A stretch of 64,000 nucleotides of DNA. It comes from an uncultured Clostridia bacterium. Its GTDB lineage: Bacteria > Bacillota > Clostridia > TANB77 > CAG-508. Positions within the stretch are counted from its first letter, which is position 1; every line of letters begins with the position of its first letter. The stretch lies in the NCBI GenBank assembly GCA_947623725.1, contig CANQHI010000003.1, forward strand, positions 2,328 through 66,327, in the 5' to 3' direction. This document shows positions 19,847 to 44,641 of this stretch, piece by piece. A program made the translations under genes and the position numbers. Below the pieces are notes generated by a model that did no database searches, was not told where the DNA came from, and was given only the letters and a program-made list of their open reading frames with translations.

Positions 19847-19891
19847 GTTTTCTCCTTCTTTTGTTTTAATACTTTGTTCTCATTCAAGAAG

Positions 19892-19948
19892 AATATATCA
19901 TATTTTATAAAATTTTTCTATAATTTATAAATAATAATATAAAAATAA
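19892..19948 (-). promoter_or_regulatory. promoter-like conserved motif, copy A (upstream of the kinase/transglutaminase gene)
   Basis: 57 nt, nearly identical to 26536-26591 (exact blocks of 27, 13 and 10 nt). The minus strand ends in TGATATATT (extended -10-like, 19900-19892), 46 nt upstream of the ATG at 19846. Confidence 0.45.
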
Positions 19949-20015
19949 ATAGAAACTTAGCTTATAATTTAGAAGAATAGCTCTACTTATGAAGCTTGTT
20001 ATAAATATTAATTAT

Positions 20016-20052
20016 AAAAAAACTATGTGGAATGTTATTTCATTTCACATAG
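20016..20052 (-). terminator. intrinsic terminator downstream of greA
   Basis: The minus strand reads CTATGTGAAATG-AAATAA-CATTCCACATAG (12 bp, one G-U) followed by TTTTTTT. Confidence 0.75.
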
Positions 20053-20108
20053 CTTTTCAGATTTCTAATAAGATTCCTGATTTTTAATACAAATAATTTA
20101 AAAGTTAT

Positions 20109-20591
20109 TTACTCGACTTTTAGAACTTTAATTTTAATAATATTTCCATTAACACTATATTTTCCTTCAAATCCAACTGTTTTTCCTAAAATACATTCTC
20201 CAATCGGTGAATTTATAGAAACTTTATTTTCATCAAATTTTCCTTGTCCACCGGTTAAAATGAATGTATCTTCTTCGCCATATCCATCAGATTCTTCCAT
20301 ATATACCCTAATTTTAGACCCAACTTTGATAACACTTTCATCTTCATCAGGATCAGTCTCAATAAGTTCAGCTGTTTCAATTTGATGTTTTAATTGGTTA
20401 ATTTCATAAATTAGCCCTCTTTCTTTAATTTCAGTTTGCTCGAATGCAAAATTATCATGCCATGCATCACCTTCATTTTCAGCTGCTTGATTTTTATACT
20501 TTCCTAGTTGCCGAAGTTCTTTTTGTTTTAGTTCTAATTCTTTGTTAAGTTCTTCAAACCCTGCCTTTGTAAATTTTAGTTTTTGTGTCAT
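20109..20591 (-). CDS. greA: transcription elongation factor GreA family
   Basis: 160 aa. N-terminal coiled coil (FTKAGFEELNKELELKQKELRQL) and the C-terminal globular domain typical of GreA/GreB. Confidence 0.85.
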   Translation of the reverse strand: MTQKLKFTKAGFEELNKELELKQKELRQLGKYKNQAAENEGDAWHDNFAFEQTEIKERGLIYEINQLKHQIETAELIETDPDEDESVIKVGSKIRVYMEESDGYGEEDTFILTGGQGKFDENKVSINSPIGECILGKTVGFEGKYSVNGNIIKIKVLKVE

Positions 20592-20640
20592 AGTATAGTC
20601 TCCTCCTTAAATTATGTGTATTATAATATATATATAAGCA

Positions 20641-21240
20641 TTATTGCTTTTTAGCTAAATAATTATTTATATACCAACTTGCAAATTGATCTTTTGCATC
20701 TCCCCAAAATGTTGCCTCTTTTTCATAGTCTATATCTCTTAATTCACTTAAAGTTTTTGTTTCTCCATCTGGTATATAAAATTTGTCATGCCATCTGCCT
20801 CTTGTTCCTCTTGCTTCATATGCTATAGTTCCTGTGCCTCCTCCAGAAAAAACTATTGCTTTTTTGCCTGGTTCACAGAAAGCAAAACAATGTTCTAATC
20901 TTGCTTTTCTATTTTTTTCATTTTTAAACAATTCCAAGAATTTTTCAACACCTATTTGTTTATCAAAATAATGATTATATGGTCCAGGAAGTCCTCCTAA
21001 TGCATCAATATATAATCCACTATCTGATTTCAATACTGGTAAATTTAATTTATTTGCTCCATATTCAGCACTAAATGCTGCTACGTCTATACAACTTTCT
21101 GCCTGAATTTCTAATATTTCAAAATCCGGATTTACAATTTCTAAATTAAATCCATATTTTTTCCCAAAGAATTCATTTGCTTCGTTTACCTTATTAGGAT
21201 TTGTCGTTAAATAAATTAATTTTTCCATATTTTCCTCCAT
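20641..21240 (-). CDS. Ham1/RdgB-family non-canonical NTP pyrophosphatase-like protein
   Basis: LIYLTTNPNKVNEA (T.N..K..E), SDSGLYIDALGGLPGPY and RGTRG..DKFYIP. The start codon abuts the stop of the upstream gene (21240/21241). Confidence 0.75.
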   Translation of the reverse strand: MEENMEKLIYLTTNPNKVNEANEFFGKKYGFNLEIVNPDFEILEIQAESCIDVAAFSAEYGANKLNLPVLKSDSGLYIDALGGLPGPYNHYFDKQIGVEKFLELFKNEKNRKARLEHCFAFCEPGKKAIVFSGGGTGTIAYEARGTRGRWHDKFYIPDGETKTLSELRDIDYEKEATFWGDAKDQFASWYINNYLAKKQ

Positions 21241-28674: not shown

Positions 28675-28828
28675 TAGATACCTTCCTTATCTTTCTCAAT
28701 TTGCTTTTGATATCTATCCTCCTCTGAGTAAGCAATTTATCGACACACAACATTTTCTTTCAACTTATTGATTTTTCTAATAATATTTAAACTTTTTATG
28801 TATTAATAAATTGACTACTTTTTTAATT

Positions 28829-29581
28829 TTAATTATTTTTTATGTCTTTTGATTCGATTAAAAGCTCATCAAAGTCAGAAATATATTTTTTGTCTTGCAC
28901 AACTCTATATTTCTTATATTCATCTAAGGCTAACTTATCTGCTATTTCTCTTTTTATTTTACCATTATCCTTTAAAATATTGTACTCGTTTATTTTTAAA
29001 AATACTTCTAATTTTTCTTTCCATTCTTTCATTGAAATAATTTTGCCTAATTTTACTTGTCTTTCTGCATAGTCTAAATACATTGAAACTAGATTATTTA
29101 ATTCTTCTATTTCTTCTTTGTCTAGATAATTTTTTGCAATAGTTACATCTGTTTTAAGTATTTTTCCATTTGGTCCATTTTTTAATAGCTCACTATTTAA
29201 TACAAAGCCTTTTTTTATATACTCTTTTAATGTTTTAGTTGCCCATATTCTAAAATCTGTTGCTTCTTTTGAGTTTACTCTATAACCAACTGCTATTATT
29301 GCATCTAAGCTATAAAATGTGATTTGTCTTGAAACCTTTCTATTTCCTTCGTTTTGAACTACTCTAATTTTTTGAATAGTTCGATTTTCTTCTAATTCTC
29401 CAGTTTTAAATATATTTTGTAAATGATAAGTAATGTTATTTTCTGCAACATTAAATAGTTCTCCCATAGATTTTTGTGTTAACCAAAAATCTTCATCATT
29501 ATATAAAACTTCTACTGATATGTTTTCATTGTTTTGACTTTGATATATGATTAAATCTTTTAAGTTTTCTACATTGTTCAA
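28829..29581 (-). CDS. RhuM-family protein (short form)
   Basis: WLTQKSMGELFNV..NITYHLQNIFKTGEL, FYSLDAIIAVGYRVNSKEATDFRIWATKTLKEYIKKGF, and the C-terminal IAKNYL..EEIEELN.LVSMYLDYAE. At 250 aa it lacks a central segment I expect in typical RhuM proteins. Confidence 0.75.
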   Translation of the reverse strand: MNNVENLKDLIIYQSQNNENISVEVLYNDEDFWLTQKSMGELFNVAENNITYHLQNIFKTGELEENRTIQKIRVVQNEGNRKVSRQITFYSLDAIIAVGYRVNSKEATDFRIWATKTLKEYIKKGFVLNSELLKNGPNGKILKTDVTIAKNYLDKEEIEELNNLVSMYLDYAERQVKLGKIISMKEWKEKLEVFLKINEYNILKDNGKIKREIADKLALDEYKKYRVVQDKKYISDFDELLIESKDIKNN

Positions 29582-29626
29582 TAAACATTCCTCCTTTTCA
29601 ACTTTTAAGTATTTCTTAACAATTAA

Positions 29627-32407
29627 TTATTGTTCTTTTACATATTCTTGTTCTTTCATTTTTGTTTTTTCTATACTTTTAATCAGCTGTACTTGTTCGT
29701 TAATTTCTCCAGTTCTTGTTGTTTCTTTTGTTAATTCTACTGTTTCTTGAATTAACCCTTTTGTTCTATCTTTTGCTCTAAATATTAATTCTGTTCTTTT
29801 GTCTAAATCACTAACAGCATCTTTTATTTTAAATACTTCAATATCTCTCTTCGTTTCACTTTTGCCTTTTTCCATATAAAACATTTGAGTCCAATCGCTT
29901 AGCCCCTTAATACCTCTCTCATCCCATATAGATTTCCACAATTCATCGCTAAAATATTGTCCATTTCCTTTAAAATTATTTCCAAATTTCTGTACTATTG
30001 CTTGTAAAGTTTTATTATCTCTCGTCTCAGCATATTCATCTGCCATCATTTGTATCTTTTGCATTTCTGCTTCAGCACATTTTTGTTTGTCTACTATAAC
30101 TATAGGTATATTAAAGTCTTCAGCTGCTTTTAAGCTATTTTGCCATATTTTTTTATCTTCCTGCTCATTTCCTGTTTTTATAAAAACAACATAGCTTGGT
30201 TGTTTTCTTGTTCCATCTTTATTGTTTCTATTAAATAGCATCTCATTGTAATTTCCTTGAAGACACCCTTCTGATTCATTTATCATTGTGTTCTCTGTTA
30301 AAAATTTTACTTCTCTTTTAGCAATCGGTCTGAATCTAGCTGCATCTGAACTCATATCTTTAGGACTTGCTGCCATTAATGTCCCTCTATCATAATCTGT
30401 AAATCCATACACCACATTCTTAATATGTGCTGTCGCAAGCATATCATTTCTTATATAACTAGTACAAAATCCTTGTGAAGCTATTTGTGGTCTATTCCAA
30501 TCTTCTCTATACTCTTCTCTTTCATTATTAGTATGATAAGCTCCAATTGATGATAAAGATATGCTAAATTCTGTTCCTGCATCATACACTTTCACCTCTC
30601 CATTTTCTGTCTTTGTAACACCTAGAAAGTTCTTTTCATCAGTTTTAAAGAGTTTCTTATTATACGTCTCTAAATATGCATCATTTAACCCTTCTGCTAT
30701 TCTATCAAGATTTTCCATCTCCATTTTAGGCATAGTTTTACTATCCTCATATATTTGTCTTAAAATATCTAAATCGTCGGTTTCTAATATAGTTCTTAAG
30801 CTGTAAATATATTTTACAAACTGTTCATTTTGCTCAGTTATTTCAAGATTATTGATGTCCATTGCATACTGTTCTACCAATTTTTTAGCATCTGTTAACG
30901 ATTGTCCATAAACGCTCATTAAAACTGCGAACTTAACCCTCTCATCATCTTTCATTTCCATTATTTTTTGATATTGTTTTAATTGTTCCTGAGAAGTTTT
31001 ATTTATAATATTGTCTAATACGCTTCGTTCAATTTCTTCATACTTATCTACTTCTTCCAAATTAGATATATTAAAATAGTTCTTTTTACTTAGTATTTTA
31101 CATACTTGTTCAAGTTGTTCTTCTGATAGCTTCTTTTTGCTTATATCATTAGATAAGTCTTTATATTCTTCACTATATAAATTATTAACAATTTTATCTG
31201 TAATACTAATCCAATCTATATCTTTTTCATCATAAATTTTTAATGTCTTAAAAAGGACTTGTAATGAGTTGTCATCTAGCTCACATATTCTTTCTTGTAT
31301 ATCTGGATAACAAGTAATTAATGATAATTTTTCATTCAAATTAGAGTATTTTTTATCTAATATTTTATATTTGATAGTTCTTAGCAAATCATTATTTTTT
31401 TTGTATAAATCTTTTACTGCTAATTGTTGATTTTTATCCAACGAATAAGTATTTGCTATAATTTCTAATATCTGATCATCTAATGACGCATATTTTAATA
31501 AAGTTTTAACATCGTCACATTTTGAATTTTCTTTTATAAATGATGTAACACTATTTGTACTAATAGTCTCTAAAACCATATTTTTATAAACATCACTTTG
31601 CAATGTGCTTAATAAATCTAATTTTGCATTTTCATCTTGCATACTTTCTATAATTAGGCCTCTTGCTCTATCATCTTTAATTTCTTTGAGGAAATCAGCT
31701 TTTTGTTCCTCATAGTCTGGAGATAAAGAACTTATTATACTAGCTTTATCAATATCACTGTCTAATTTATCTATAGCTTTTATCCTGATATTTTCATGTA
31801 GTCTTGGGATAATATCCATTTTTGTCACAATATAGTCTAATGCTTCTAAAACATATGATTCTTCCATACCTAATATAATTTTGCTTTTAAATGCATCATC
31901 AAATATAGAGAATTCATTCATAGGCCATTTTCTTAAGAACGCAATTTTTTGCTCATCTGTTTCTAATCTTTCCATTATTACATTTAATGTTGGAGAATTC
32001 ATTTGAAAGGTTCTTTCATCACTATTTAATTTTAAAAACTGTTGCATCAAAATATCTGAATTTTTTATATTAATTAATGCTCTCATTTTTAAATCATCAT
32101 TAGGTAATTGGCTAATTAATTCAGCAATTTTCATATCATCTACATTTTTTAAACTACCTAATATTCTCAATTTTAAATAATCAACATTAATTTTACTGAA
32201 ATATTTAATTTTATTTTCATCACTGTCATTTAAAATGCTTGCTGTTATATCTTCTAAAATATGAGTGATTTCTTCTTTTTCCTGTTCTACACCTGTTTGA
32301 TTTAATACCTCCATATAATGCTTATATAATTCCTGCTTTTTTTCTATGCTTCCAATAGATAAATACAATTTTAATTTAAACTGTTTGACCACACCTATAT
32401 TTTTCAT
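29627..32407 (-). CDS. large hypothetical protein: helical-repeat N-terminal ~560 aa plus globular C-terminal domain of unknown function
   Basis: 926-aa uninterrupted ORF. No P-loop, TM helix or signal peptide seen. The C-terminal domain (about residues 600-775, nt 30083-30610) contains AYH625TNN, CTSY651I and GNYNE722MLF....QPSYVVF. Confidence 0.7.
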   Translation of the reverse strand: MKNIGVVKQFKLKLYLSIGSIEKKQELYKHYMEVLNQTGVEQEKEEITHILEDITASILNDSDENKIKYFSKINVDYLKLRILGSLKNVDDMKIAELISQLPNDDLKMRALINIKNSDILMQQFLKLNSDERTFQMNSPTLNVIMERLETDEQKIAFLRKWPMNEFSIFDDAFKSKIILGMEESYVLEALDYIVTKMDIIPRLHENIRIKAIDKLDSDIDKASIISSLSPDYEEQKADFLKEIKDDRARGLIIESMQDENAKLDLLSTLQSDVYKNMVLETISTNSVTSFIKENSKCDDVKTLLKYASLDDQILEIIANTYSLDKNQQLAVKDLYKKNNDLLRTIKYKILDKKYSNLNEKLSLITCYPDIQERICELDDNSLQVLFKTLKIYDEKDIDWISITDKIVNNLYSEEYKDLSNDISKKKLSEEQLEQVCKILSKKNYFNISNLEEVDKYEEIERSVLDNIINKTSQEQLKQYQKIMEMKDDERVKFAVLMSVYGQSLTDAKKLVEQYAMDINNLEITEQNEQFVKYIYSLRTILETDDLDILRQIYEDSKTMPKMEMENLDRIAEGLNDAYLETYNKKLFKTDEKNFLGVTKTENGEVKVYDAGTEFSISLSSIGAYHTNNEREEYREDWNRPQIASQGFCTSYIRNDMLATAHIKNVVYGFTDYDRGTLMAASPKDMSSDAARFRPIAKREVKFLTENTMINESEGCLQGNYNEMLFNRNNKDGTRKQPSYVVFIKTGNEQEDKKIWQNSLKAAEDFNIPIVIVDKQKCAEAEMQKIQMMADEYAETRDNKTLQAIVQKFGNNFKGNGQYFSDELWKSIWDERGIKGLSDWTQMFYMEKGKSETKRDIEVFKIKDAVSDLDKRTELIFRAKDRTKGLIQETVELTKETTRTGEINEQVQLIKSIEKTKMKEQEYVKEQ

Positions 32408-32472
32408 GTTTACTCCTTAAGATATTATTTTCTATATAAATCTTTTTACATTGTCATGTGAATCATAATGCT

Positions 32473-32931
32473 TTATCTTATATGTAAAATCTTTAATATT
32501 TCATTTAAAATTCTTTTAAATATTGGCTCTTTATATTCTATCATTTGCATACTTTCTTTTGTTTTATTATTGGTTTGTAATATGGATTTTTCTTTCTTGA
32601 ATATATCATTAGGGTTATACTTTTCATATAACATATCTTGATACTTTTTTTCATTTTGAGCATAAATTTCCTGTAATCTCCTTTTTTCTTCTTTATCTTT
32701 GCACCAATACTGTAAATTAAGTAATGCAATAATAGCTAAAGTTTCTTCTTTTAAATTTTGGTCTTTTATTGGAATATCTTTATCAATAATTTTAAAATAA
32801 TCTTTGTCTTTTTCTTCTTTAAAGAATTCTCTTAATTTTTTTGGAATTTCATTTTTTTGTTTTTCACTTAATAATTCTAAAAACTCATCTATTTCTGCAT
32901 ATGCTTGTCTTGTTTTTATTGATATACTCAT
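32473..32931 (-). CDS. hypothetical protein (152 aa), helical
   Basis: ORF directly upstream of the 926-aa gene. IPKKLREFF...ETLAIIALLNLQYW resembles C-terminal modules seen attached to XRE-type regulators, but no HTH is present here. Confidence 0.55.
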   Translation of the reverse strand: MSISIKTRQAYAEIDEFLELLSEKQKNEIPKKLREFFKEEKDKDYFKIIDKDIPIKDQNLKEETLAIIALLNLQYWCKDKEEKRRLQEIYAQNEKKYQDMLYEKYNPNDIFKKEKSILQTNNKTKESMQMIEYKEPIFKRILNEILKILHIR

Positions 32932-33044
32932 ATTTAAACCTCATTAATTATATTTTTCCTATGTAAATTACCTATTCTTGGTGTGTGTCGATAAATAGTT
33001 TATTCCTATATTGCTTCATTATTCAAATGACTTCTACTGTAAGA

Positions 33045-33605
33045 TTATACTTTATTGTGTCGTAAATATCTTTCCTCCTCCGAAAAAATACAGCCACAAT
33101 ATTTTTGCATATATAGTCCTAGTTCTTTTGCCTTCTTTTTTCCTTCCCAAAATCCTTCTCTAAAATCTCTATAAACAAACTCAATTCCATATTTTTTACT
33201 TAAATTTTCCATATAAGATTTTATAAAATCATGTTTTTGATAAATACTATAAAGAAGTGTTGTTGAAACAGCATCATATCCATTTTCTTTTGCATATTCA
33301 AATGTTTTTATAAATCTTACTGGATAGCAATAATTTATACATCTTGCATTTAAATCTTTTACCGCTTCTTTACAAAATTCATCTAAGCCATAATTGTCAT
33401 CAATTATGGCATTTACATTTATATTTTTTGCATATTCTATTAAGCAATCTCTCCTTGCTTTATATTCTGTATAAGGATGAATATTTGGATTAAACCAAAA
33501 TAACGTAGGTTCTATTCCTTCCTCTCTTAACTTGTCTATACAATATACACTACAAGGTGCACAACAAGTATGTAATAATAATTTCATTTTATCTTGTTTT
33601 ATCAA
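33045..33605 (-). CDS. queH: epoxyqueuosine reductase QueH (DUF208)
   Basis: LLLHTCCAPCS near the N-terminus and YCGCIFSE near the C-terminus. 186 aa. Confidence 0.88.
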   Translation of the reverse strand: MIKQDKMKLLLHTCCAPCSVYCIDKLREEGIEPTLFWFNPNIHPYTEYKARRDCLIEYAKNINVNAIIDDNYGLDEFCKEAVKDLNARCINYCYPVRFIKTFEYAKENGYDAVSTTLLYSIYQKHDFIKSYMENLSKKYGIEFVYRDFREGFWEGKKKAKELGLYMQKYCGCIFSEEERYLRHNKV

Positions 33606-33660
33606 TTATATAGAAATATTAATCTATTTAATTGATTAATTCCCTTCTTTTATATTTTAA

Positions 33661-35517
33661 TTAATCTTCTTGATTGTTATATTTTAAAATTCCTCCAAAT
33701 TCGTTTTCATAAACAAGTTCTGCATTCTCCCATAATTTATCTTTTTCTTGTATGTAAAAATTTCCATTATTAAAGTAAAGAACATAATCTACCTTTCCTG
33801 CTTTTTCGCCTACAGACATTGCCTTCTTTTCTAAGCAGACCTGTCCACTATCAGGAATATCTTTATTTATTATTCTTGTTAAAGAGTATGTCCAAAAAAC
33901 TTGCTCGAAACTTCCTGCAACTTCTACTTTTGCTTCCTCTGGAATATTATCCTTTACATATTTAATAAGTTCTATTTCTTCTTTTGTTACATCTTTTGAT
34001 GGTAGTTGTAATATTGTCTTATTAGCTCCATAAATATCTGCTACTTGCCAAAATCTCTCACCTTTATCTATTATTCCAGGAGAAATATTTGTATTAAAGA
34101 ATATTAGTGTAATTAGTATAGCTAATATATATACTCCTAAATATATACTTGGTAAAACTTTACCTTCTTTATTAGCTACTATCAAGCCACCTTTAAAACT
34201 TAAATAATAAAGTAATACCCATAATGCATAATAGTTCTTATTTAAGTAATACATTGATACTTTTCCAAAGTTATATCCTATAAATAATAATACTATGTAA
34301 AAAATTGTAAAAATTGCTATTAATGACTGACCTTTATTCTCTTTCCAACCTTTAAATATTGCTATAATTGTAAATGGTAACAACATTATCATATTTGAAA
34401 ATAAATTAACGTATATATATCCATAAGCTTTTAATCCTTTTCCAATTATATTTTCTTGTTGTTCTATTGCATTAGAAATATTTAATTTTTTATTGATAAT
34501 TACCCCATATACTTCTGGTGTAATATGATAAATATATCCAAAGAAAAATGGCATTAACAATGACACAAATAATAATATAAATAATTTTTTAGAAAATATT
34601 TTTTTATTTTTCTTATAATTGTCAATGCAGAAATATATCCATAATCCACTATATACATAGGGAACAAACATAAAATATGAAGCAAATAATCCATAATTCA
34701 ATAAGAAGAAAACTAGTACATTATGTTTAAATCCTATTTCTTCATTTTGGTAAACATCTATAGATGCAATTATTGCTGTTAAAACCAATATTCCCATACT
34801 TAGATATTCAAAACCAAATAACATACTGTCTGCTGGGTATCCCATTAAATACAATAATGAAACTACAAATGCAAAAAGTTTTCCCCAGTTACTTTTTGTA
34901 AATCTCGAAATCGTACTATAAAAAAGCCATCCAGTTAAGAATAAAGTAAATATTCCAAATAAAATGAAAATAATATAATTATTAAATGGATCGATTATCT
35001 TCTGCAAGCATTTCATAATTAATCCAGAATTTACATATGATACTGTTTTTCTTGTCGAAAGTCTTCCGAATACAGTATCTTTTTTTCCTCCTGGAAGTAA
35101 TGAATTTCCCTCTGCAAACATTTCAGATGTTAAATAATGTGCAGATGAATCTCCTGATTGATATTTTAATTCAAATGGAAATCCAAAATTAAGATATGAA
35201 ACTATTGCAACTGCAATTCCTAAAAGAATAATATATATTAAGTCAATTAACTTAAAATTAAATTGTTGTATCTTTTTAGTTTTTACAATATATATTATCA
35301 TTAGTGAACTAAAGAATAAATTTATTCCACTTAATCCTAAAAGATTCAATGGAATACAAAAAAATGTTGTCACATAATAAACAAAAGCATTATAACAAAA
35401 ATAAATTACTATATTTAGCGCAATTTGTTTTAATATATCTACTTTCTTTTCATTTTTCTTTATTAATAAATAACTCACAAAAAGAGTTATCGATGATAAA
35501 ATATATACTACTTCCAT
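33661..35517 (-). CDS. polytopic integral membrane protein (12 or more predicted helices) with C-terminal soluble domain
   Basis: Long hydrophobic ORF. I prefer the ATG at 35517 (MEVVYIL) behind GAGGTGGG. The ORF-track start at 35562 adds 15 codons. Confidence 0.65.
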   Translation of the reverse strand: MEVVYILSSITLFVSYLLIKKNEKKVDILKQIALNIVIYFCYNAFVYYVTTFFCIPLNLLGLSGINLFFSSLMIIYIVKTKKIQQFNFKLIDLIYIILLGIAVAIVSYLNFGFPFELKYQSGDSSAHYLTSEMFAEGNSLLPGGKKDTVFGRLSTRKTVSYVNSGLIMKCLQKIIDPFNNYIIFILFGIFTLFLTGWLFYSTISRFTKSNWGKLFAFVVSLLYLMGYPADSMLFGFEYLSMGILVLTAIIASIDVYQNEEIGFKHNVLVFFLLNYGLFASYFMFVPYVYSGLWIYFCIDNYKKNKKIFSKKLFILLFVSLLMPFFFGYIYHITPEVYGVIINKKLNISNAIEQQENIIGKGLKAYGYIYVNLFSNMIMLLPFTIIAIFKGWKENKGQSLIAIFTIFYIVLLFIGYNFGKVSMYYLNKNYYALWVLLYYLSFKGGLIVANKEGKVLPSIYLGVYILAILITLIFFNTNISPGIIDKGERFWQVADIYGANKTILQLPSKDVTKEEIELIKYVKDNIPEEAKVEVAGSFEQVFWTYSLTRIINKDIPDSGQVCLEKKAMSVGEKAGKVDYVLYFNNGNFYIQEKDKLWENAELVYENEFGGILKYNNQED

Positions 35518-35626
35518 ATTGTTTTCCCACCTCAATAATTTTATAGTACAAATTTTTTTCAAAATTTCAACTTTTTATATTTTTAATTTCTAAATTTTTA
35601 TACTTTATATTTTTTATTTTGTTTTT

Positions 35627-36628
35627 TTACATATCAATTCCTAAATGCTTATATGCTGCTGGAAGTGCAATTCTTCCCCTTGTTGTCCTTGCCACAAATC
35701 CTATTTGAATTAAATATGGCTCATACACATCTTCTATTGTTGATACTTCCTCTCCAAGTGTAGTTGCTAATGCATCAACTCCAACAGGTCTACCTTGATA
35801 TTTATTTATCAATGTATCTAGTAATCTTTTATCTATTGCATCTAGTCCTATTTCATCTATGTCTAATTTATTTAATGAAATCCTTGCTATTTCTAATGTG
35901 ATTTTTCCATCTCCTAAAACTGATGCATAATCTCTTACTCTTTTTAATAATCTATTTGCGATTCTTGGTGTTCCTCTTGATCTTTTCGCAATTTCAACTG
36001 CTGCCGTTTCATCTATATCTATATTTAAAATATTTGCTGATCTATTTACTATTGTTGTTAAATCTTCTGTATCATAAAGTTCTAGCCTTTCTACAATTCC
36101 AAATCTATCTCTAAGTGGTGTAGTGAGTGAACCTGCTTTTGTAGTTGCCCCAATTAATGTAAACTTTGGAAGATCTAAACGGATTGATTTTGCCGTTGGT
36201 CCTTTTCCTATAATAATATCTAATGTATAATCTTCTAATGCCGGATATAAAATTTCTTCTACATTTTTATTTAATCTATGTATTTCATCTATAAAAAGCA
36301 CATCAAATTGAGAAAGATTTGTAAGTAATGCTGCTAAATCTCCTGCTTTTTCTATCGCTGGTCCCGATGTTATTTTTATATTTGATTCCATCTCATTTGA
36401 AATAATATTTGCAAGAGTTGTTTTTCCAAGTCCTGGAGGGCCATATAATAAAACATGGTCGAGAGGTTCTCCTCTTTTTTTTGCTGCTTCTATATATACT
36501 TTCATATTTTCTTTTACTTTGGTTTGTCCAATATATTCGCTTAATTTCTGCGGTCTTAATACATTTTCTTGCTTTTCTTCTATACTATTTTCTATATTTG
36601 GATTAATTAAGTTTCTATTTTCTTCCAT
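35627..36628 (-). CDS. ruvB: Holliday junction branch-migration ATPase RuvB
   Basis: [30 protein letters not shown] and [12 protein letters not shown]. No ruvA is adjacent. Confidence 0.97.
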
Positions 36629-36700
36629 AGATAAATCCCTTTCTATAGCATTTTATGTTCTTATCACAATATATTTTAATTATAGCAAAAACTACAACTT

Positions 36701-37810
36701 TTATTTATTTTTCTCTTCTAAAAGTCTTTCTTTTTCTTTATTTTGCTTTAATATTTCTCTATTATATTTTCTTATTTCTTTACTTCCAACCGCTAACATA
36801 ACCGCAGTTAATAATATAAGTGATAAAGCTTTCCATATTCCATCATTAATAAGTATCAATGTAAATAATCCTATTGATGCACTTAAACAATATAAAATAT
36901 AAACAGCTTGTTTTTGAGTATATCCCATTTTCATTATTCTATGATGTAAGTGCCCTCTATCTGCGCTGAATACCGCCTTTAGTGATTTTCCTTTTATCAA
37001 TCTTCTAATTATTGCAAAAAGTGTATCAAATATTGGCAATCCTAATACTAAAACTGGTGCAATTAAAACTACTAAAGTTACTGTTTTAGCTACTCCTAAT
37101 ATTGCAATTACAGATAATGAAAATCCCAAAAATTGTGCTCCAACATCTCCTATAAATGTTTTTGCTGGATTTGCATTATATGGCAAAAATCCTAAAATTG
37201 AACCTGCTAATGCTGTAATCAATACTATTGATATTACTGGTGAATTATTTGTTGCAAATATCAGCAATAAGAATATACATGATATTAAGGTTATTCCTGA
37301 TGATAAACCATCTAATCCATCAATCAAATTAATTGCATTTGTAATTCCTATTATCCATCCAACGGTTAAAATAAAACTTATAGGTTCTGGCAATATAACT
37401 CCATTTATTTCATCAATTCTTATTCCAAAACTAAATATTATTATTGCAGATACAATTTGTGCAATTAATTTTTGAATTGGTTTTAAATTTTTTATATCAT
37501 CTATTAATGCAAATATTCCTAAAAATATAATTCCTATCAAAAATCCGATTAATTTTACTTTATAATTTTCAGTGTCATTTAAGTCTAATTTTCCCTCTAT
37601 CGACATACTTATAACTAAATAGATTGCAGACACTAAAAAGCCTGTTATTACTGCTAGTCCACCTATTCTTGGAATTGGCTTCTTATTTACTCTCCTGTCA
37701 CTTGGATAATCTATTGCACCAACTTTTTTTGCTAACTTTATTGTATATGGTGTTACTACAAAGGCTGTTATTGTTGCCAATAAAAATGCTATTGCAATAT
37801 CCCCCCACAT
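36701..37810 (-). CDS. polyprenyl-phosphate N-acetylhexosamine-1-phosphate transferase (MraY/WecA/TagO family)
   Basis: Multi-TM, 369 aa. NAINLIDGLDGL motif, PIPRIGG and HLHHR. Confidence 0.85.
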   Translation of the reverse strand: MWGDIAIAFLLATITAFVVTPYTIKLAKKVGAIDYPSDRRVNKKPIPRIGGLAVITGFLVSAIYLVISMSIEGKLDLNDTENYKVKLIGFLIGIIFLGIFALIDDIKNLKPIQKLIAQIVSAIIIFSFGIRIDEINGVILPEPISFILTVGWIIGITNAINLIDGLDGLSSGITLISCIFLLLIFATNNSPVISIVLITALAGSILGFLPYNANPAKTFIGDVGAQFLGFSLSVIAILGVAKTVTLVVLIAPVLVLGLPIFDTLFAIIRRLIKGKSLKAVFSADRGHLHHRIMKMGYTQKQAVYILYCLSASIGLFTLILINDGIWKALSLILLTAVMLAVGSKEIRKYNREILKQNKEKERLLEEKNK

Positions 37811-37831
37811 AGGCTTGCCTCCTTCAATTTA

Positions 37832-38800
37832 TTACAATTCATTCATTTCTTTTTTTTCATTATACTCATTTACTAAATATAATGGTCTATTTTTAGTTTC
37901 ATTAAATATTCTTCCTAAGTATTCTCCAACAATTCCAAATAAAAGTATTTGAATTCCTGAAAAGAATAATATCAACAAAATTATTGCTTGATACGCTTGA
38001 ATTATAATACCTGTAATACAACATTTTACAATAACATATATGAAATATACAAATAGTGCAATGAATGTTGGTATTGCTATATAAGTAGATATTCTTAGTG
38101 GCGATGTTGTAAATGATGTTATTCCATCTATTGCAAGATTGACTAATTTCATATAATTCCACTTTGTTCTTCCTGCAACTCTTGGATCTCTATCATATAA
38201 TATAGCTTTCTTTTTATATCCTATCCAGCTAAACATACTTTTTGAGCATCTTTGTGATTCTCTTAATTTTTTTAAAGCATTTACACATCTTCTATCTAGA
38301 AGTCTAAAATCACCTGTGTCTTTTTGTATTTCGACATTTGTTAATGTTTGTAATATTCTATAGTATAGCTTTGATGTAAATTTCTTTAAAAAAGTTTCTC
38401 CTTTTCTTGATTTTCTTTGTGCATATACATCATCATATCCTTCTTCCCAGTATTTTAGCATTTCTGGAATAAGTTCTGGAGGATCTTGAAGGTCTGCGTC
38501 CATCAATATTACGCAATCTCCAGTCGCATAATCAAGACCTGCTATCATTGCTATTTCTTTTCCAAAATTTCTTGAAAAATCTACATAAGAAATCCTTTTA
38601 TCTTCTTTTCTATATTGTTTTATTAATTCTAAAGTTTTATCTTTAGAACCATCATTCACAAAAAGAATCTCAAATTCATATTGTTTCATTTCTTTTATCA
38701 ACTTTTCTAATCTTTCGTATAAAAATGGTAATGACTCTTGTTCATTATAAGCTGGTATAATTATAGTAACTTTTTTCACTTTAGTAATACTCCTTCCCAC
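37832..38800 (-). CDS. GtrB/CsbB-like GT2 polyprenol-phosphate glycosyltransferase
   Basis: IIIPAYNEQESL, VNDGSKDKT, MDADLQDPPELI and two C-terminal TM helices. Confidence 0.85.
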   Translation of the reverse strand: MGRSITKVKKVTIIIPAYNEQESLPFLYERLEKLIKEMKQYEFEILFVNDGSKDKTLELIKQYRKEDKRISYVDFSRNFGKEIAMIAGLDYATGDCVILMDADLQDPPELIPEMLKYWEEGYDDVYAQRKSRKGETFLKKFTSKLYYRILQTLTNVEIQKDTGDFRLLDRRCVNALKKLRESQRCSKSMFSWIGYKKKAILYDRDPRVAGRTKWNYMKLVNLAIDGITSFTTSPLRISTYIAIPTFIALFVYFIYVIVKCCITGIIIQAYQAIILLILFFSGIQILLFGIVGEYLGRIFNETKNRPLYLVNEYNEKKEMNEL

Positions 38801-38819
38801 AGTATATTTTTATATACCA

Positions 38820-40397
38820 TTATTTTTTTATAACATTTTTTATTTTTTGTATATATTTTTTTACATTAATCTTATTTAATTCCATTGAGGCAATTGGAAT
38901 AAGTACTATTATATATGGTATTATATATCTAGATTTTGCTTCCCACAATATGTGAAATAAAAATCCTCCTATAAATATTGTTAGTAATAATATTACCTCA
39001 TTTGATAATTTTTTTCTATTTTGTAATAAGGCTACAATTGTACATCCAAATATTATAAATACTAATGCTTTTTGATATAATCTTATAATTTCTGTTTCAG
39101 TTTGATTTTCTAATCCTTCATCTTCATCATATACTTTATTATAAAATGTTGAGGCATACGTATTTTCTGCCCACATTGAACATATTTTCTTTGTATAAAA
39201 TTCTACCGCATCTTTAGGATTATGCAAAAAATAACTCACTCTCTCTTTTAATCCATCTTTAAATTCTTGATTTGCCTGTTCGTAATTGGTAAATGATGAT
39301 TTAGCATAATCATATCTATACCATCCAGGGCCAAGAGCTGATTCACTCATTCCCATATATAAAAATCCAGTTAATTGGAACGACTTATTACTACTTAAAT
39401 TTAGTTTTTTACAATAATAATTTTCTATTATACTTGTTGGTACAAATGTTATTACACAAAAGCATAACATTACTACTATTCTTTTTATTATTTCCTTCAT
39501 ATTAATATTTTTTGCATCTTTGCTTTCATTATCAGCATAACTACTTTTATCTATTAAATTTAAAAATAAATAAATTAATATTGCTAAAATAAATATTAAA
39601 TAATTCATTCTGAGCATATATGCTAAGCAACAACATAATGCTGAGCTTAATGCAAAATACCATTTTTTGCTAGAAGCATATTTCATAATGAAATAAACTC
39701 CTAACATTGAAAATCCGAGTCCTAATATATCTCCATAAACAAATGTTATAAGATATATTAAACTAACAAATGTTCCTGTCAGTATAATCGCTAGATATTT
39801 ATTTATATTATATTTTTTAGAAAATTCTTTACATATAAAAACAATTGAGAATAGAGTTAAAAAATTTCCTAACACATTAAATACTTCAATTAGCACAAAT
39901 TTATCTGTGTTAAATATTCTAAATAATATTTGCCACACAAATGCAAGAGTTAATTGTTGTTTATATCTTTCAGCATATTCTCTATTTGTCGACTCTCCAT
40001 CAAACATTTTCCCGTTATTAATTTCTTGTTCTATTGTACCATTTTTCATCGCAACTGCAAAAATATAAGTATTTGATTGATCTGCTTGAGGTTCTATCTC
40101 TTGTTTTGCACATATAAATACAACTTGTACAACTAAATATATAAAAAGAAATATTCCAAATAAAATTTGCTTAGCTCTTATTTTTATTTGTTTTCCCTTT
40201 AATATACTGCAAACTAAATATATTGCTACAGCAACTAATACTGTTGCTAATAATGATATAAAACTATTTAAGCCTACAGAAATAAATTCATCTCTAGAAA
40301 GTTTTGCAGTAAAGATAATATTTGCCAAAAGTACAATAAATACCATTACTAACCCTATTATTAATATTACCCTTTTTATAAATTTAAGCATTTTCAT
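38820..40397 (-). CDS. GT-C-fold polytopic glycosyltransferase (ArnT/PMT_2-like), paralogue 1
   Basis: 525 aa with about 11-13 TM helices. Acidic first loop (EPQADQSNTYIF), YKQQLTLAFVW and GDILGLGFSMLGVYFIMKY. The C-terminus is nearly identical to the other two paralogues. Confidence 0.65.
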   Translation of the reverse strand: MKMLKFIKRVILIIGLVMVFIVLLANIIFTAKLSRDEFISVGLNSFISLLATVLVAVAIYLVCSILKGKQIKIRAKQILFGIFLFIYLVVQVVFICAKQEIEPQADQSNTYIFAVAMKNGTIEQEINNGKMFDGESTNREYAERYKQQLTLAFVWQILFRIFNTDKFVLIEVFNVLGNFLTLFSIVFICKEFSKKYNINKYLAIILTGTFVSLIYLITFVYGDILGLGFSMLGVYFIMKYASSKKWYFALSSALCCCLAYMLRMNYLIFILAILIYLFLNLIDKSSYADNESKDAKNINMKEIIKRIVVMLCFCVITFVPTSIIENYYCKKLNLSSNKSFQLTGFLYMGMSESALGPGWYRYDYAKSSFTNYEQANQEFKDGLKERVSYFLHNPKDAVEFYTKKICSMWAENTYASTFYNKVYDEDEGLENQTETEIIRLYQKALVFIIFGCTIVALLQNRKKLSNEVILLLTIFIGGFLFHILWEAKSRYIIPYIIVLIPIASMELNKINVKKYIQKIKNVIKK

Positions 40398-42028
40398 TCC
40401 TCTTCTTTATATTTTTTAAAAGTTTTTCAAATTTTTGTTTATTCATTTTTATTTCAAGTGAAGCAATTGGAATAAGTGGTACTATATATGGAATTACATA
40501 TCTAGATTTTGCCTCCCACAATACATGAAATAAAAATCCACCTATAAATATTGTTAATAACAATAATATTTCATTTGATAAATTTTTTCTATTTTGTATT
40601 ATAACAAAAACACTACACCCAAAAATCAATAAAATTAATGCTTTTTGATAGAATAAAACTATACGATTTTCATTTTTGCTTGCATCATTATATTCTATAT
40701 AATTTCTTTCAATATCATAATTTATATTTTCTAATGCTACATTCATTTGTATCCCAGTATATGTATTTTCTGTCCACATCGATGCTATTTTCTTAAAATA
40801 AAATTCCAATGCATATTTTGGATTATGAAAAAATGTACTTAATCTTTCATTTATTCCATCTCTATATTGTTCTTTAGCTTTTTCATAATCTTTATATGAA
40901 TATTGTGTATATTCTTCATTATACCATCCGAGGTGAATATGCTGCTTCGCTCATTCCCATATATAAATATCCTGTTAATATAAATGGTTTATTTTTGTCT
41001 AATCCCATTTTATTGCAATAATATGTTTTTATTATACTTGAAGGTACAAGCACTATTCCTAAAAACACTATCATAACTATTATTTTTGTAATAATTTTAT
41101 TAATAGTATCTTTATTTCTTTTATATGTTCCTATTATTTTTTCCCCATTATTTATTTCTTGAGATACTTGTCCTTTTTTATAATTATTTTTATCTATCAA
41201 ATCTAAAAATAAATAAATTAATATTGCTAATACAAATATTACATAATTCATTCTAAGTAAATATGCCATTGACATTAATAAGCTAGATAATAATGCAAAT
41301 CTTATTTTCTTTTCCGATACATATTTCATTATAAAGTATATACCCATCATTGAAAATCCTAAACCTAGTGCATCACCATATATAAATGTTACTAAATAAA
41401 TTAAACTCACAAAGGTGCAACTTATTATGAATCCTAAATATGAATTTACCTTATATTTTTTTGATAACTCTTTACATATAAGAATTATTGATGATATTGT
41501 TAAAATATTTCCAAATAAATTAAAAAATCTAATAATTATATAATTTGAATTGTTAAATATTTTAAATAATATGTTCCAAACAAAAGCAAGTGTTAACTGT
41601 TGCTGGTATCTTTCAAAATATTGTCCATTTTTGGCATCATTTACAATAGCTTTTTCTTCCGAGGCAATATCGTCTAATTCATTGTTATGCATTGCTATTG
41701 CAAGCCTATAAACACTCAATTGATCATATACAGGAGATCTATTAGCTTTTACATTTATATAAAAAATATTTACACCAATGTATATAATAATAAGTAATCC
41801 ATAAAAAATATATTTTCCTTTTACAAGCTTTTTATCTAAAAATTTTCCAAATACATATATAACAATTGCTACTAATACAGAAGAAAATATAAAAGCAATA
41901 CTATTAGGTTTTACCTTTACCCATTCATTTATTTGCATATCTCCTGTTACAAATATATTTAATATAAATACTATTAACAATGATATTATTCCAACTATGA
42001 ATATAATTTTCTTTATTAATTCTTTCAT
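40384..42028 (-). pseudogene. GT-C-fold glycosyltransferase paralogue 2, split by a +1 frameshift near 40930
   Basis: ORFs 40919-42028 (369 aa, N-terminal part) and 40384-40809 (141 aa, C-terminal part) together align along the length of paralogue 1. The minus strand reads tca cct c gga tgg tat aat gaa. Removing the single c (plus-strand G at 40930) restores SPGWYNEEYTQYSYKDYEKAKEQYRDGINERLSTFFHNPKYALEFYFKK, matching GPGWYRYDYAKSS...HNPKDAVEFYTKK in paralogue 1. Confidence 0.8.
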
Positions 42029-42077
42029 TTGTTAGTCCTTTTTTATTCTTTAGATTTTTATATTATTTTTAACTTTT

Positions 42078-43016
42078 TTATTTTATATTAATTTTTTTAT
42101 CAATTATATATTCTGGTCTATGTCTTACCTCATCATAAATTCTTGCAATATACTCACCTATCATATAAAGAGAAATTAATATAACTCCTCCTAAAAAAGT
42201 TGTTACACACATTATTGAAGTCCAGCCTGGAATTAAGTTGTTCCATTTCAAAGCAAACGATAAGATAGAATAAATAAGTATAAGTATTGATACAATTACT
42301 GAAAAGATCCCAAGTCCTCCAACAAGTTTAAGTGGTTTTGTTGAAAAACTCATTATTCCATCTGATGCTAGCTTCATCATTTTCTTAAATGGATATTTTG
42401 TTTTACCTGCTAATCTTTCTTTTCTTTCATATTCATAAGCATATTGTTTAAATCCTACCCAACTAAATAGTCCTCTTAAAAATTTATTATGTTCAGGAAG
42501 AGTATTTATAACATCAACAACTTTTTTATCTACTAATCTAAAGTCACCAGTGTTTTTTGGAATTTCTATATCACTTAGTTTATTGATTGTTGCATAAAAA
42601 GCTTTTGCTGTAAATAGCTTAAATGCTGATTCCCCTTCTCTTGATTTTCTTTTTCCATAAATTACTTCATAACCTTCTTCCCATTTTTTTAACATATCTG
42701 GAATAAGTTCAGGAGGATCTTGTAAATCTGCATCCATTATAACAATTGCATCTCCTGTTACAAATTTCAATCCTGCAGTCACTGCTGCTTGATGTCCAAA
42801 GTTTCTAGAAAATGATATAACTTTAACATTCTTATCTTCCTTAGCAATTTTTTCTAATATTTCTTGAGTTCTATCTTGTGAACCATCATTTATAAAAATT
42901 ATTTCGTATTCATAATTATCTTTTAAGTTCTCTAATACTTCAGATACTCTTTTATAACAATCCTCTGCTACTTCTTCTTCATAATACATTGGTATAACAA
43001 GTGATATTTTTTTCAT
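42078..43016 (-). CDS. GtrB/CsbB-like GT2 polyprenol-phosphate glycosyltransferase, second copy
   Basis: LVIPMYYEEEV, INDGSQDRT, MDADLQDPPELI and two C-terminal TM helices. Confidence 0.85.
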   Translation of the reverse strand: MKKISLVIPMYYEEEVAEDCYKRVSEVLENLKDNYEYEIIFINDGSQDRTQEILEKIAKEDKNVKVISFSRNFGHQAAVTAGLKFVTGDAIVIMDADLQDPPELIPDMLKKWEEGYEVIYGKRKSREGESAFKLFTAKAFYATINKLSDIEIPKNTGDFRLVDKKVVDVINTLPEHNKFLRGLFSWVGFKQYAYEYERKERLAGKTKYPFKKMMKLASDGIMSFSTKPLKLVGGLGIFSVIVSILILIYSILSFALKWNNLIPGWTSIMCVTTFLGGVILISLYMIGEYIARIYDEVRHRPEYIIDKKINIK

Positions 43017-43048
43017 TTTTATTTGCCTTTCTATTTTATCTTTCTATT

Positions 43049-44641
43049 TTAGTCATTTGATTTTTCCTTTTTTAACTCATTTTTATTATTTTTCTTATTT
43101 TTAAATTTTATCTTTATTAACTCTGTATTCATTGATGCAATTGGTATTAATACTACAATATATGGTATTATATATCTAGATTTAGTTTCCCATAATATAT
43201 GAAATAGAAATCCACCTATAAAAATTACTAATAAAAGAACAACTTCATTAGATAAATTCTTTCTATTCTTAATAAGAAATATTGCACTACTTATAAATAT
43301 TAATAACACTACACCTTTTTGAATTACCTTTATTATATCTTCATTATTTAATACTTGTTCATCTTTACCAATATCTTTTTCTAAAGTCTCATCAGAAAAA
43401 TTAAAGGTTTGATTATGCCAAATTGCTGAATATGAATTTTCTGCCCAAGTTGAAATTATTTTTCTTGCATAAAAATCTAAAATTTCCATTGGATTATTTT
43501 TAAAATATTCTAATCTATTTAGTATTATTTGTTTATAAATTTCAATCTTTTGTTTCTCACCGCAATCATTAATTTTAAACATATCGTCATCATACCAACC
43601 GGCTTCTCTATCACTCTCCGATATTCCCATAGCAAGATAACCTATAACAGGAAATTTAGTTCCTGTATCTATGTTATATTTACTTATCATAATGTTTTTA
43701 ACTAAACTATTTGGAGTAAATATAATTATTAAAAATAATAATATAAATCCTACTTTATCAAAAATCTTTAATAATCCTTTTTTTAAATCATTTTTTAGAT
43801 TATATTTTTGCTTTAATATATCAAGTAATAAATAAACTAGAATTGCAATTATAATTATCAAATTATTCATTCTAAACATATAGCCAAAGCACATTAGTAT
43901 TGCTGAAAAACTCAAATATTTTCTTTTATTTTCTAATGAATATCGCATTATATAATATATACTAAATAATGCAAATGATAATCCTATTTCATCGCCATAT
44001 ATAAATGTTGATAGCATTGGAATAGCAATAAAACCACAAAACAATAATATTGCAAGCGGATTATTAGATGATTTTTTATTTTCACCTTTATTTTTACCTA
44101 AATAATCTGTTATTAAATATATAGCAAGCAAACTTAATGTATTTGCTAAAGCATTTGCTAATTTAACTATTATTATACTATTAATTCTAATAATATTAAA
44201 CAACAAATTAAACATAAATGCTAAAGTAAGTTGCTGTGGATATACTCCAAAATAATCCGGAGCACTTATTTCCTTCATATTACTATCATAAAGCTCACTT
44301 GCTCCACCATACACATATCTTTGATCTGCAACTGGTGATGAATTTCTATAAATTATCCATATTATTTGTATAATATAAAATGCTATAAGTACCAATATTA
44401 GCATTCTCTTCTTTAATTTCTTATTGTCAATTTTTTGAATATTAATACTTAAATAATACATAAATATAGCTATTATTATTGATACAATTAATTTTAATAT
44501 ACTATTAGTTGTTATACTTATATTTTCATTTATATTATTTGAAATACTTGCTGTAAAAAATAAATTACTAAGTATAACTGTAAAAAGTATTATAATTCCA
44601 ATATAAAAAATAATCTTTTTTAATAAATTTCCAACTTTCAT
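43049..44641 (-). CDS. GT-C-fold polytopic glycosyltransferase (ArnT/PMT_2-like), paralogue 3
   Basis: 530 aa. PVADQRYVYGG first loop, YPQQLTLAFMF, GDEIGLSFALFSIYYIMRY and the conserved C-terminus LSNEVVLLLVIFIGGFLFHILWETKSRYIIPYIVVLIPIAS. Confidence 0.65.
   Translation of the reverse strand: MKVGNLLKKIIFYIGIIILFTVILSNLFFTASISNNINENISITTNSILKLIVSIIIAIFMYYLSINIQKIDNKKLKKRMLILVLIAFYIIQIIWIIYRNSSPVADQRYVYGGASELYDSNMKEISAPDYFGVYPQQLTLAFMFNLLFNIIRINSIIIVKLANALANTLSLLAIYLITDYLGKNKGENKKSSNNPLAILLFCGFIAIPMLSTFIYGDEIGLSFALFSIYYIMRYSLENKRKYLSFSAILMCFGYMFRMNNLIIIIAILVYLLLDILKQKYNLKNDLKKGLLKIFDKVGFILLFLIIIFTPNSLVKNIMISKYNIDTGTKFPVIGYLAMGISESDREAGWYDDDMFKINDCGEKQKIEIYKQIILNRLEYFKNNPMEILDFYARKIISTWAENSYSAIWHNQTFNFSDETLEKDIGKDEQVLNNEDIIKVIQKGVVLLIFISSAIFLIKNRKNLSNEVVLLLVIFIGGFLFHILWETKSRYIIPYIVVLIPIASMNTELIKIKFKNKKNNKNELKKEKSND

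Follow-up and report, generated by a model that had tools for sequence, protein, structure and literature searches.

The 64,000-nucleotide (nt) stretch analysed here, referred to as the window (positions 2,328 to 66,327 of contig CANQHI010000003.1 of an uncultured Clostridia bacterium, assembly GCA_947623725.1), carries three co-oriented genes between queH, which encodes epoxyqueuosine reductase, and a gene for an HD-domain phosphohydrolase (HD), and these genes are enclosed by an inverted pair of the 15-mer ATTTATCGACACACA. The reading favoured here, with a probability of roughly 60%, is that the block is a composite, integrase-less accessory islet lying in a recombination hotspot at the end of queH, and that the repeats are probable recombination sites. 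All genes of the region lie on the minus strand, and their order in the direction of transcription is ruvB, the gene for a 633-amino-acid (aa) membrane protein, queH, a repeat, p152, p926, a RhuM-family gene, a repeat and HD. The initial annotation of this DNA had described exact inverted 15-mers around three co-oriented genes between queH and HD, and both the coordinates and the open reading frames (ORFs) are verified: the pair encloses exactly three minus-strand ORFs, those of p152, p926 and RhuM (Table 1).

For the comparison with other genomes, 80 queH loci were collected by a QueH protein scan of uncultured gut Clostridia (CAG-245-like metagenome-assembled genomes), one genome per species, and closer relatives, L102/L103 among them, were reached later via homologues of HD. 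The loci L001-L003, L084 and L103-L110 derive from metagenomes of the ENA series ERZ272492xx-ERZ272496xx. The L102/L103 genome (GCA_947588945.1) has the same gene order as the window, with 89.9% nt identity to positions 35627-43976 and 96.6% to positions 20010-26539, and is syntenic with it over more than 15 kb at 90-97% nt identity. In L102/L103, ruvB, queH, HD, a kinase-like gene and a U32 peptidase gene are contiguous and the queH stop overlaps the HD start (..gataaggaaggtatcTAATGaat..), an overlapping junction that is also found in L012 and in L107-L110. By this comparison, HD is the ancestral downstream neighbour of queH. The direct adjacency of the two genes in L012, L102/L103 and L107-L110 bears out the earlier proposal of an inserted accessory module. 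The initial annotation also asked whether an empty junction matches a single repeat copy; none of these junctions carries a copy of the 15-mer.

The 54 nt that precede HD in the window (28674-28727) are a non-coding copy of the end of queH, which is 96.6% identical to the L012 junction, 95% identical to that of L102 and, over 38 nt, 97% identical to the native queH tail of L071. Homology of the window queH to L012 and L102 stops at position 33066, which defines the inserted DNA as 28728-33065 (4,338 bp). On either side of the insert lies one copy of an imperfect direct repeat made up of the queH codons S-E-E-E/D-R-Y, TCGGAGGAGGAAAGATAT at 33066-33083 and TCAGAGGAGGATAGATAT at 28710-28727 (16 of 18 positions identical). 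The insert provides queH with a new tail, LRHNKV*, such that the queH reading frame is intact. Judged from these alignments, the three-gene block is shown to be an insertion, and the original queH tail is displaced 4.3 kb downstream, where it survives as a non-coding relic. The queH ends of the relatives fall into three kinds, namely the common type A (EEDRYxKQIKxDK..), an end fused to an extra domain, and type B (EEERYLRHNK*). The body of the window queH is closest along its whole length to L012 and L004 (and to the L102 type, with 90% nt identity to L102), whereas its tail is identical at 25 of 25 positions to that of the more distant L039, a combination that shows the tail to have been gained by recombination at the core.

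Three other interpretations of the sequence around these junctions were tried and dropped. HD and RhuM had appeared to be recently exchanged mobile genes, being 95-97% identical to their L012 counterparts against 83% for queH, but L102 shows the queH-HD arrangement to be ancestral. A sequence resembling the type-B tail after HD (28040-28098) was not significant by blastn-short, and a degenerate queH core before the forward 15-mer proved no better than chance on inspection and is not claimed.

As a pair of strings, the 15-mers do not stand out from the window, which has a G+C content of 26%. The actual sequence contains 75 exact 15-nt inverted pairs, whereas 200 shuffles that preserve dinucleotides contain 39 on average, and 45% of the shuffles include pairs with five or more G/C; such pairs being common, their count alone is not significant. 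The 15-mers are not a product of chance, as both copies are conserved at equivalent junctions of other genomes. The inverted repeat is prolonged outward to 24-27 nt (28726-28752 against 32979-33005, 85% complementary), and the consensus of the extended motif, of about 24 nt, reads GAGTAArCnATTTATCGACACACA. The two copies in the window are identical to each other at 15 of 15 positions and also to the copies of L012 and L104, although the adjacent non-coding DNA has diverged. A high genome-wide frequency of the 15-mer, which the initial annotation had named as fatal to its proposal, is not seen in the sequence covered, the 64-kb window and the related loci: there are no further copies in the window with up to two mismatches allowed, and in about 1.5 Mb of related sequence (some 110 loci) the motif is never seen at unrelated sites but only in modules derived from queH 3′ ends. 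A third, degenerate copy, ATTTA-CGACACAA, which the initial annotation overlooked, abuts the core and constitutes the codons Y-L-R-H-N of the type-B tail of queH, so that the 15-mer is closely related to the alternative last codons of queH itself. No target-site duplication surrounds the 15-mers, as the 18-nt direct repeat flanks the larger segment and not the repeats, and the sole sequence shared on both sides of the extended repeat is an AG dinucleotide.

Comparison across loci shows the two 15-mers as the innermost bases of two different conserved junction modules. The type-B flank module on the queH side consists of the core, the tail TTACGACACAAT.., about 48 nt, and (G)GAGTAAnCnATTTATCGACACA. 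It is conserved in L030, L038, L039 and L081, where the 15-mer lies 48-50 nt after the queH stop and where L038 has two to three tandem copies, and in L104/L105 it is present as a displaced relic attached to no queH. The HD-proximal module consists of TGTGTGTCGATAAAT, a 7-nt linker and the displaced type-A queH end; it is identical in L012 after RhuM (8340-8406) and slightly degenerate in L104, L105 and L106 (TGTGTATCAATAAAT TGCTTAC TCAGAGGAAG..). On the queH side the junction of the insert (33065/33066) lies about 70 nt outside the right 15-mer copy, and on the HD side the repeat and its linker abut the displaced queH core.

The L104/L105 loci carry both modules around other content, as a forward copy (5991) and an inverted copy (6819) of the motif bracket one C26-peptidase gene, a cargo unlike that of the window. 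In alignments of the window with L104/L105, homology on either side extends as far as the inner edge of the 15-mer and no further, and L030, L038 and L081 diverge from each other right after the forward copy. The abrupt end of homology at the inner edges, together with the difference in cargo, indicates that the inverted 15-mers delimit a slot of genome-specific content. All of the sequence between the 15-mers is variable, with p152-p926 and a decayed RhuM gene in the window and the single C26-peptidase gene in L104/L105. The motif also occurs as solo copies, forward only in L030, L038, L039 and L081 and inverted only in L012.

Table 1. Features of the queH-HD region, with positions counted in the window
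Feature	Position	Strand	Description
ruvB	35627-36628	-	
queH (epoxyqueuosine reductase)	33045-33605	-	Pfam PF02677, E=1e-55; last codons are the alternative type-B tail (..EEERY followed by LRHNKV*)
Core direct-repeat copy 1, TCGGAGGAGGAAAGATAT	33066-33083	-	queH codons S-E-E-E-R-Y; queH homology to L012/L102 ends here (blastn end points)
Degenerate third motif copy	33055-33067	-	tail identical at the DNA level in L030, L038, L039 and L104
Inserted segment, 4,338 bp	28728-33065	-	absent at the queH-HD junction of the closest relatives
queH-proximal repeat	32982-33005	-	15-mer (exact reverse complement) at 32982-32996, extended outward by 9 nt; forms the conserved end of the type-B queH 3′ flank module
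p152, 152 aa	32473-32931	-	small helical protein; family profile matches
p926, 926 aa	29627-32407	-	uncharacterised family; AlphaFold model and exhaustive HMMER search
RhuM-family gene, 250 aa	28829-29581	-	PF13310, E=1e-55, in two stretches
HD-proximal repeat	28726-28749	+	15-mer at 28735-28749, extended outward; next on the gene strand comes the linker TGCTTAC (28728-28734)
Displaced original type-A queH 3′ end	28674-28727	-	includes core direct-repeat copy 2 (28710-28727); old stop overlaps the HD start
HD-domain phosphohydrolase gene	28099-28674	-	PF01966; 95% aa identity to L012

The sequence downstream of queH is very diverse across the 80 species-level loci, which show the site to be a hotspot where genes are repeatedly inserted and lost. 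In 15 of these loci a RhuM-family gene is found no more than about 3.5 kb downstream of queH, and in L012, L017, L052, L061, L068, L069 and L078 an additional, displaced queH 3′ end comes immediately after the 3′ flank of RhuM, the two always being joined between (T)TCA and GARGARGA. In L068 a perfect direct repeat of 48 nt surrounds a segment with RhuM as its single gene, L043 has a further queH 3′ fragment that ends in a type-B-like tail, and three relic queH ends follow one another in series in L104. Other cargo at the locus includes Fic-domain genes (L044, L107), a zeta toxin (L037) and several p152-family pairs. Relative to L102, the window has two further extra blocks in the same region. 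One (33695-35626) holds the gene for the 633-aa polytopic membrane protein (gene listed at 33661-35562) between ruvB and queH, and in L102 the corresponding gap is 92 nt and lacks this gene; a protein with 60% identity is present in L004, and from these comparisons the 633-aa gene is taken to be a second variable slot adjoining queH. The other block (26540-28113) includes a pilin-like gene. With three extra blocks relative to L102, the interval from 26.5 to 35.6 kb is a variable zone in an otherwise collinear genome.

Several additional observations concern this zone and its counterparts. The pilin-like gene (26634-27722) encodes 362 aa with an N-terminal pilin-type methylation motif (a weak PF07963 match), and its block, the third indel of the same 9-kb zone, is replaced in L102 by a remnant of RhuM. 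This remnant (L102 9562-9710, after HD) keeps only about 30 nt of the RhuM interior, the last codons and about 40 nt of the 3′ flank, which indicates that the ancestor had HD followed by RhuM, as in L012, and that the RhuM gene was almost wholly deleted. In L081 (10806-18153), ParA-like and ParB-like genes and a gene for a 1,602-aa surface-type protein follow the type-B queH flank, which suggests that a larger element is integrated at the same site and reaches past the 10 kb that were retrieved. Another kind of RhuM 3′ flank, about 184 nt long, is found in L052 (13233-13416), L061, L068, L078, L004 and L104; it contains two perfect palindromes (GGTTATATATTATAACC; CCTTTATATATAAAGG) together with a conserved segment, AAGGAGTAATG..CAGGGTACGCAAATTTTGACAGTTAAATAGG, ahead of the displaced queH end, and it also occurs as RhuM-less relics in L104. 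In L012, a DUF1016/YhcG-like ORF (8443-8680) is broken by in-frame TGA codons. Stop-codon recoding was considered for this ORF and rejected, as L104 has TGG (Trp) at the position of the first TGA within an intact 223-aa gene, so that the L012 copy is a pseudogene.

In the window, the incoming DNA split queH at the S-E-E-E/D-R-Y codons and supplied the short tail LRHNKV*, and the old tail was pushed downstream with its stop still overlapping the HD start. In the proposed mechanism, the motif of about 24 nt would serve as a recombination site or half-site at which a recombinase encoded elsewhere in the genome swaps cargo, and the flanking modules could double as homology arms for transfer among related species. 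A more far-reaching version, which is speculative and rather doubtful, holds that a trans-encoded recombinase uses the motif for integron-like cassette exchange anchored in the queH 3′ end, with RhuM, the C26 peptidase, pairs of p152 and its partners, and Fic as small promoterless units that are exchanged and stacked there, and with p152-p926 as an unrecognised two-gene conflict or defence module. A resemblance of the motif to Xer/dif sites was considered, but the spacing does not fit and it is not claimed.

A number of points weigh against an islet with active recombination sites. No recombinase that could act on the motif was identified. A simple motif search with regular expressions, run over the window and over 10 kb on either side for each retrieved locus, found nothing downstream of queH with the signature of a tyrosine or serine recombinase; the only genes of this kind were XerC/D-like housekeeping genes, upstream of queH in some loci. 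Pattern scans of viral and metagenome collections yielded no excised circle or attP-like junction. The pattern GTGTCGATAAA-N18-36-TTTA(N)CGACAC returned two GC-rich chance matches in viral contigs, and GTGTCGATAAAT-N4-10-CAGARGARG returned six chance matches and one doubtful 1.2-kb contig (L097) in metagenome contigs. The full inverted bracket is present in two lineages only, the window and L104/L105, which are mutually related, and it could be inherited rather than functional; the inverted 15-mer, TGCTTAC and the queH end together look like one ancestral rearrangement that L012, L104 and the window share by descent. HD and RhuM are arranged in a different order in L012 than in the window, a difference that needs extra steps such as tandem duplication or re-insertion of a circle. 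Finally, homologous recombination via the conserved flanks could explain the replacement of cargo without a site-specific enzyme.

The last of these points is central to the main rival explanation, in which the 15-mers are functionless relics of the type-B queH tail (TAT TTA CGA CAC AAT), duplicated and once inverted, and cargo turns over by homologous recombination. The motif equals this tail bar one inserted base, many genomes accumulate relics of queH ends at the locus, L038 has three copies in tandem, and the inverted junction is apparently inherited in common by the window, L012 and L104. Against it, a remnant of about 24 nt exactly at both cargo boundaries is not expected from neutral decay, the copies remain 15/15 identical in the window, L012 and L104 beside diverged non-coding DNA, and conservation ends abruptly at the inner edge on both sides. 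The explanation is considered unlikely, though it deserves more weight than the following three, each of which ranks lower owing to the points counted against it. The passenger genes bracketed by inverted repeats (15 nt exact, 24-27 nt extended), the other cargo inside the same inverted pair in L104/L105, the empty site of relatives without a repeat and, as weak evidence, the AG dinucleotide on both sides of the extended repeat would be expected of a non-autonomous or fossil transposon, either similar to a miniature inverted-repeat transposable element (MITE) or a mobile insertion cassette, that has the 15-mers as terminal inverted repeats and its transposase in trans. This origin is nonetheless improbable. 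The occurrence of each copy alone at an equivalent position elsewhere, the lack of a convincing target-site duplication and the position of the true queH junction about 70 nt outside the right copy indicate that the repeats are not classical transposon termini; in addition, the motif is confined to queH 3′-end modules, the outward end reads ATTTAT.. and is not a TG..CA-type terminus, and no transposase lies nearby in the window. The initial annotation's view that the repeats mark the ends of the module thus stands for the edges of the exchangeable part, as seen in L104/L105, and falls for terminal inverted repeats of one discrete element. Its statement that the block encodes no transposase or integrase agrees with the domain searches, which found no recombinase, integrase or transposase domain in the cassette or its flanks.

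A role of the repeats as promoter or operator elements under a shared regulator finds some footing in their location 50-60 nt upstream of a start codon in both cases (p152 and HD), in the resemblance of the TCGACA within the motif (TTGACA in L039, L081 and L038b) to a -35 box, and in a perfect TTGACA-17-TATAAT at the homologous place in L029. Yet no consistent -10 box follows at 16-18 nt in the window, L104, L038, L039 or L081, and promoter-like sites are not enriched, with 39 found against 46 expected. The HD-proximal copy is also oriented away from HD, the L012 copy precedes a pseudogene, and HD of L102 is translationally coupled to queH and has no such site. The region from 27000 to 34000 gave no Rfam match even at E ≤ 1 and no consensus structure was obtained for the queH flank in five species, results that likewise disfavour an RNA element, and regulation is regarded as a quite improbable origin of the repeats. 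Least probable is an invertible, phase-variable segment in which an invertase flips the 4.2-kb block at its inverted repeats. A gene block flanked by inverted repeats and the presence of the motif in both orientations relative to neighbouring modules within the clade would fit such a switch, but there is no invertase gene nearby, a flip would turn all three genes antisense to the local operon, and three independent metagenome assemblies of the same species (L001-L003, a small sample) have a single orientation at the queH junction.

The composite islet has partial counterparts among known systems. In its architecture the islet matches cis-mobilizable elements (CIMEs), which are integrated elements that have lost their integrase, and the tandem accretion of such elements at target-gene 3′ ends, as reviewed for the ICESt1 family of Streptococcus (PMC5704250). 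As in these, the 3′ end of a conserved gene is invaded and its frame completed by the incoming DNA, the direct repeats are copies of the gene end (attL/attR-like; 16/18 here and up to 48 nt in L068), the islet lacks integration and transfer genes, and displaced gene ends occur serially in L104, L012 and L068. Unlike the case of CIMEs, more than 100 loci yielded no integrase-bearing partner element that uses this site, the target is the protein-coding tail of queH, and the cargo edges are additionally marked by the inverted motif of 15-24 nt, which is not a CIME feature. Integrase-free defence hotspots between conserved core genes are known from the pan-genomes of E. coli and Pseudomonas, and the present locus shares with them the conserved flanks (ruvB/queH and HD/kinase/U32), the highly variable cargo, with RhuM and Fic among its predicted toxin-type genes, and the lack of any mobility gene. 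It differs in that its cargo holds no validated defence system and in its exact point inside a gene, duplicated gene ends and specific repeated motif, which together argue for more than homologous exchange mediated by the flanks. The resemblance to integron cassettes lies in small, often one-gene and apparently promoterless units, each with a conserved site at its end that adjoins a fixed position of the chromosome; in contrast to integrons, an IntI integrase is absent, the attC boxes RYYYAAC/GTTRRRY are not matched by the motif, and the bracketing sites are inverted rather than direct. Mobile insertion cassettes and MITEs consist of inverted repeats derived from insertion sequences (IS) around passenger genes, and as in these the window has passenger genes inside inverted repeats and no internal transposase, but the window and the related loci show no target-site duplication, dispersed copy or cognate IS, and the repeats derive from queH 3′-end modules and stay attached to them.

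For the cargo, the p152 and p926 genes appear to form a unit of their own. p926 has no match in Pfam, PADLOC, NCBIfam or PHROGs, no tblastn match on annotated plasmids or phages, and a word-indexed protein search returned the query itself only. An exhaustive HMMER search identifies a family of 675 representative clusters (E ≤ 1e-3) with a conserved core at about residues 310-820. AlphaFold models of the protein (predicted local distance difference test scores of 82 for the whole and 88.6 for residues 575-835) predict an N-terminal helical-repeat solenoid (about 1-585), an alpha/beta domain (about 590-775) and C-terminal helices. W637, E722, D773 and C777 are invariant residues assigned to the alpha/beta domain. 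Sequence searches against the PDB were negative, and a Foldseek search with the whole model gave generic helical solenoids only; for the alpha/beta domain the best Foldseek matches were the ADP-ribosyltransferase CteC (E=0.17) and TnsA (E=0.43), neither of which is significant, and no claim is based on them. p152 likewise has no match in Pfam, PADLOC, NCBIfam or PHROGs, and its family profile matches the neighbours of p926 homologues with E values from 1e-25 to 1e-63.

Co-occurrence of the two genes in other genomes, which the initial annotation had proposed as a check, is readily found. p152 homologues of 147-175 aa adjoin every p926 homologue that was looked up (L084, L085-87, L088, L098/99, L100 and L101), the pair occurs together in seven other contexts, and none of the p926-homologue loci (L084-L088, L098-L101) has queH, RhuM or the motif. 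An ORF of 43-50 aa lies between the two family members in several of these loci, and the neighbourhood of L098 includes a type IIG restriction-modification (R-M) gene, AbiEi/AbiEii and two NERD genes. Members of the p152 family have further partners among unannotated proteins of 190-373 aa (L026, L037, L038, L063, L078, L111), an arrangement that looks like a conserved small partner with variable large proteins. In these pairs the p152-family genes overlap the 3′ end of the unrelated 190-373-aa genes (e.g., L111 1125-2649), and several of the pairs lie inside the queH/HD hotspot. From its gene neighbourhoods, p152-p926 is inferred to be a portable, independent two-gene module, for which a conflict or defence role is plausible as a candidate function.

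A toxin role has been suggested for the RhuM domain, which is associated with R-M loci (PMC3710099). The 250-aa protein of the window resembles this family in matching PF13310 (E=1e-55) as well as PDC-S05, a candidate family that is its only match in PADLOC 2.0. It departs from the family in that 89 central residues are gone and in its linkage to the queH hotspot rather than to R-M genes. The PF13310 match falls in two separate stretches and is not full-length, as expected of a truncated member, and the shortening noted in the initial annotation is now traced to an in-frame internal deletion of 89 codons relative to the 342-aa L012 orthologue (residues ~138-226 of the L012 protein). The deletion lies between short repeats, with blastn blocks that overlap by 21 nt at this point, and it suggests decay, such that RhuM is probably a degenerating predicted-toxin gene. 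The RhuM unit spans the sequence between a point about 20 nt upstream of the start codon and the linker, and is 94-97% identical to the units of L012 and L104, and the units of the three genomes have different upstream neighbours. As the RhuM unit is shared with L012 and L104 and the 152/926 pair has no close relative, the cassette is composite; the earlier description of a three-gene cassette holds for the number of genes enclosed but not for their being a single unit. GC content and skew are alike in the islet and in the DNA on either side of it.

If the favoured reading is correct, reduced-genome gut Clostridia that are represented by metagenomes only would maintain, where a tRNA-modification gene ends, a slot reserved for accessory and toxin-type genes, which are swapped between species with no mobility gene on the island. 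The displaced gene ends could then be read as a record of earlier insertions, and the queH core GARGARGAnAGrTAT together with the ATTTATCGACACA motif would offer a sequence handle for detecting such islets in metagenomes. The p152-p926 pair would be flagged for testing, the large p926 family being without annotation. Should the motif be a mere relic, the locus would be an ordinary variable region of little import beyond annotation.

Other repeated sequences in the window lie outside the islet. A perfect 27-nt inverted repeat, TTATTAAGTAAAAAGATTAATAAAAAA, has its arms at 27844-27870 and 28009-28035 with 138 nt between them; it sits in the 376-nt spacer between HD and the pilin-like gene, within the block 26540-28113 that is absent from L102, and may represent either a long hairpin or an inserted element of small size. 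The kinase-like gene has at its start (26415-26450) a perfect palindrome of 17 nt (TAACAAAAGACAAGTGT / ACACTTGTCTTTTGTTA, with the centre GTGTTGACAC), which is kept in L102 ahead of the orthologous gene and may be an operator. An intergenic sequence of about 50-70 nt is present at 19885-19954 and 26536-26588 and also in L004 (14151-14221, 86-89%), and may be a small dispersed repeat.

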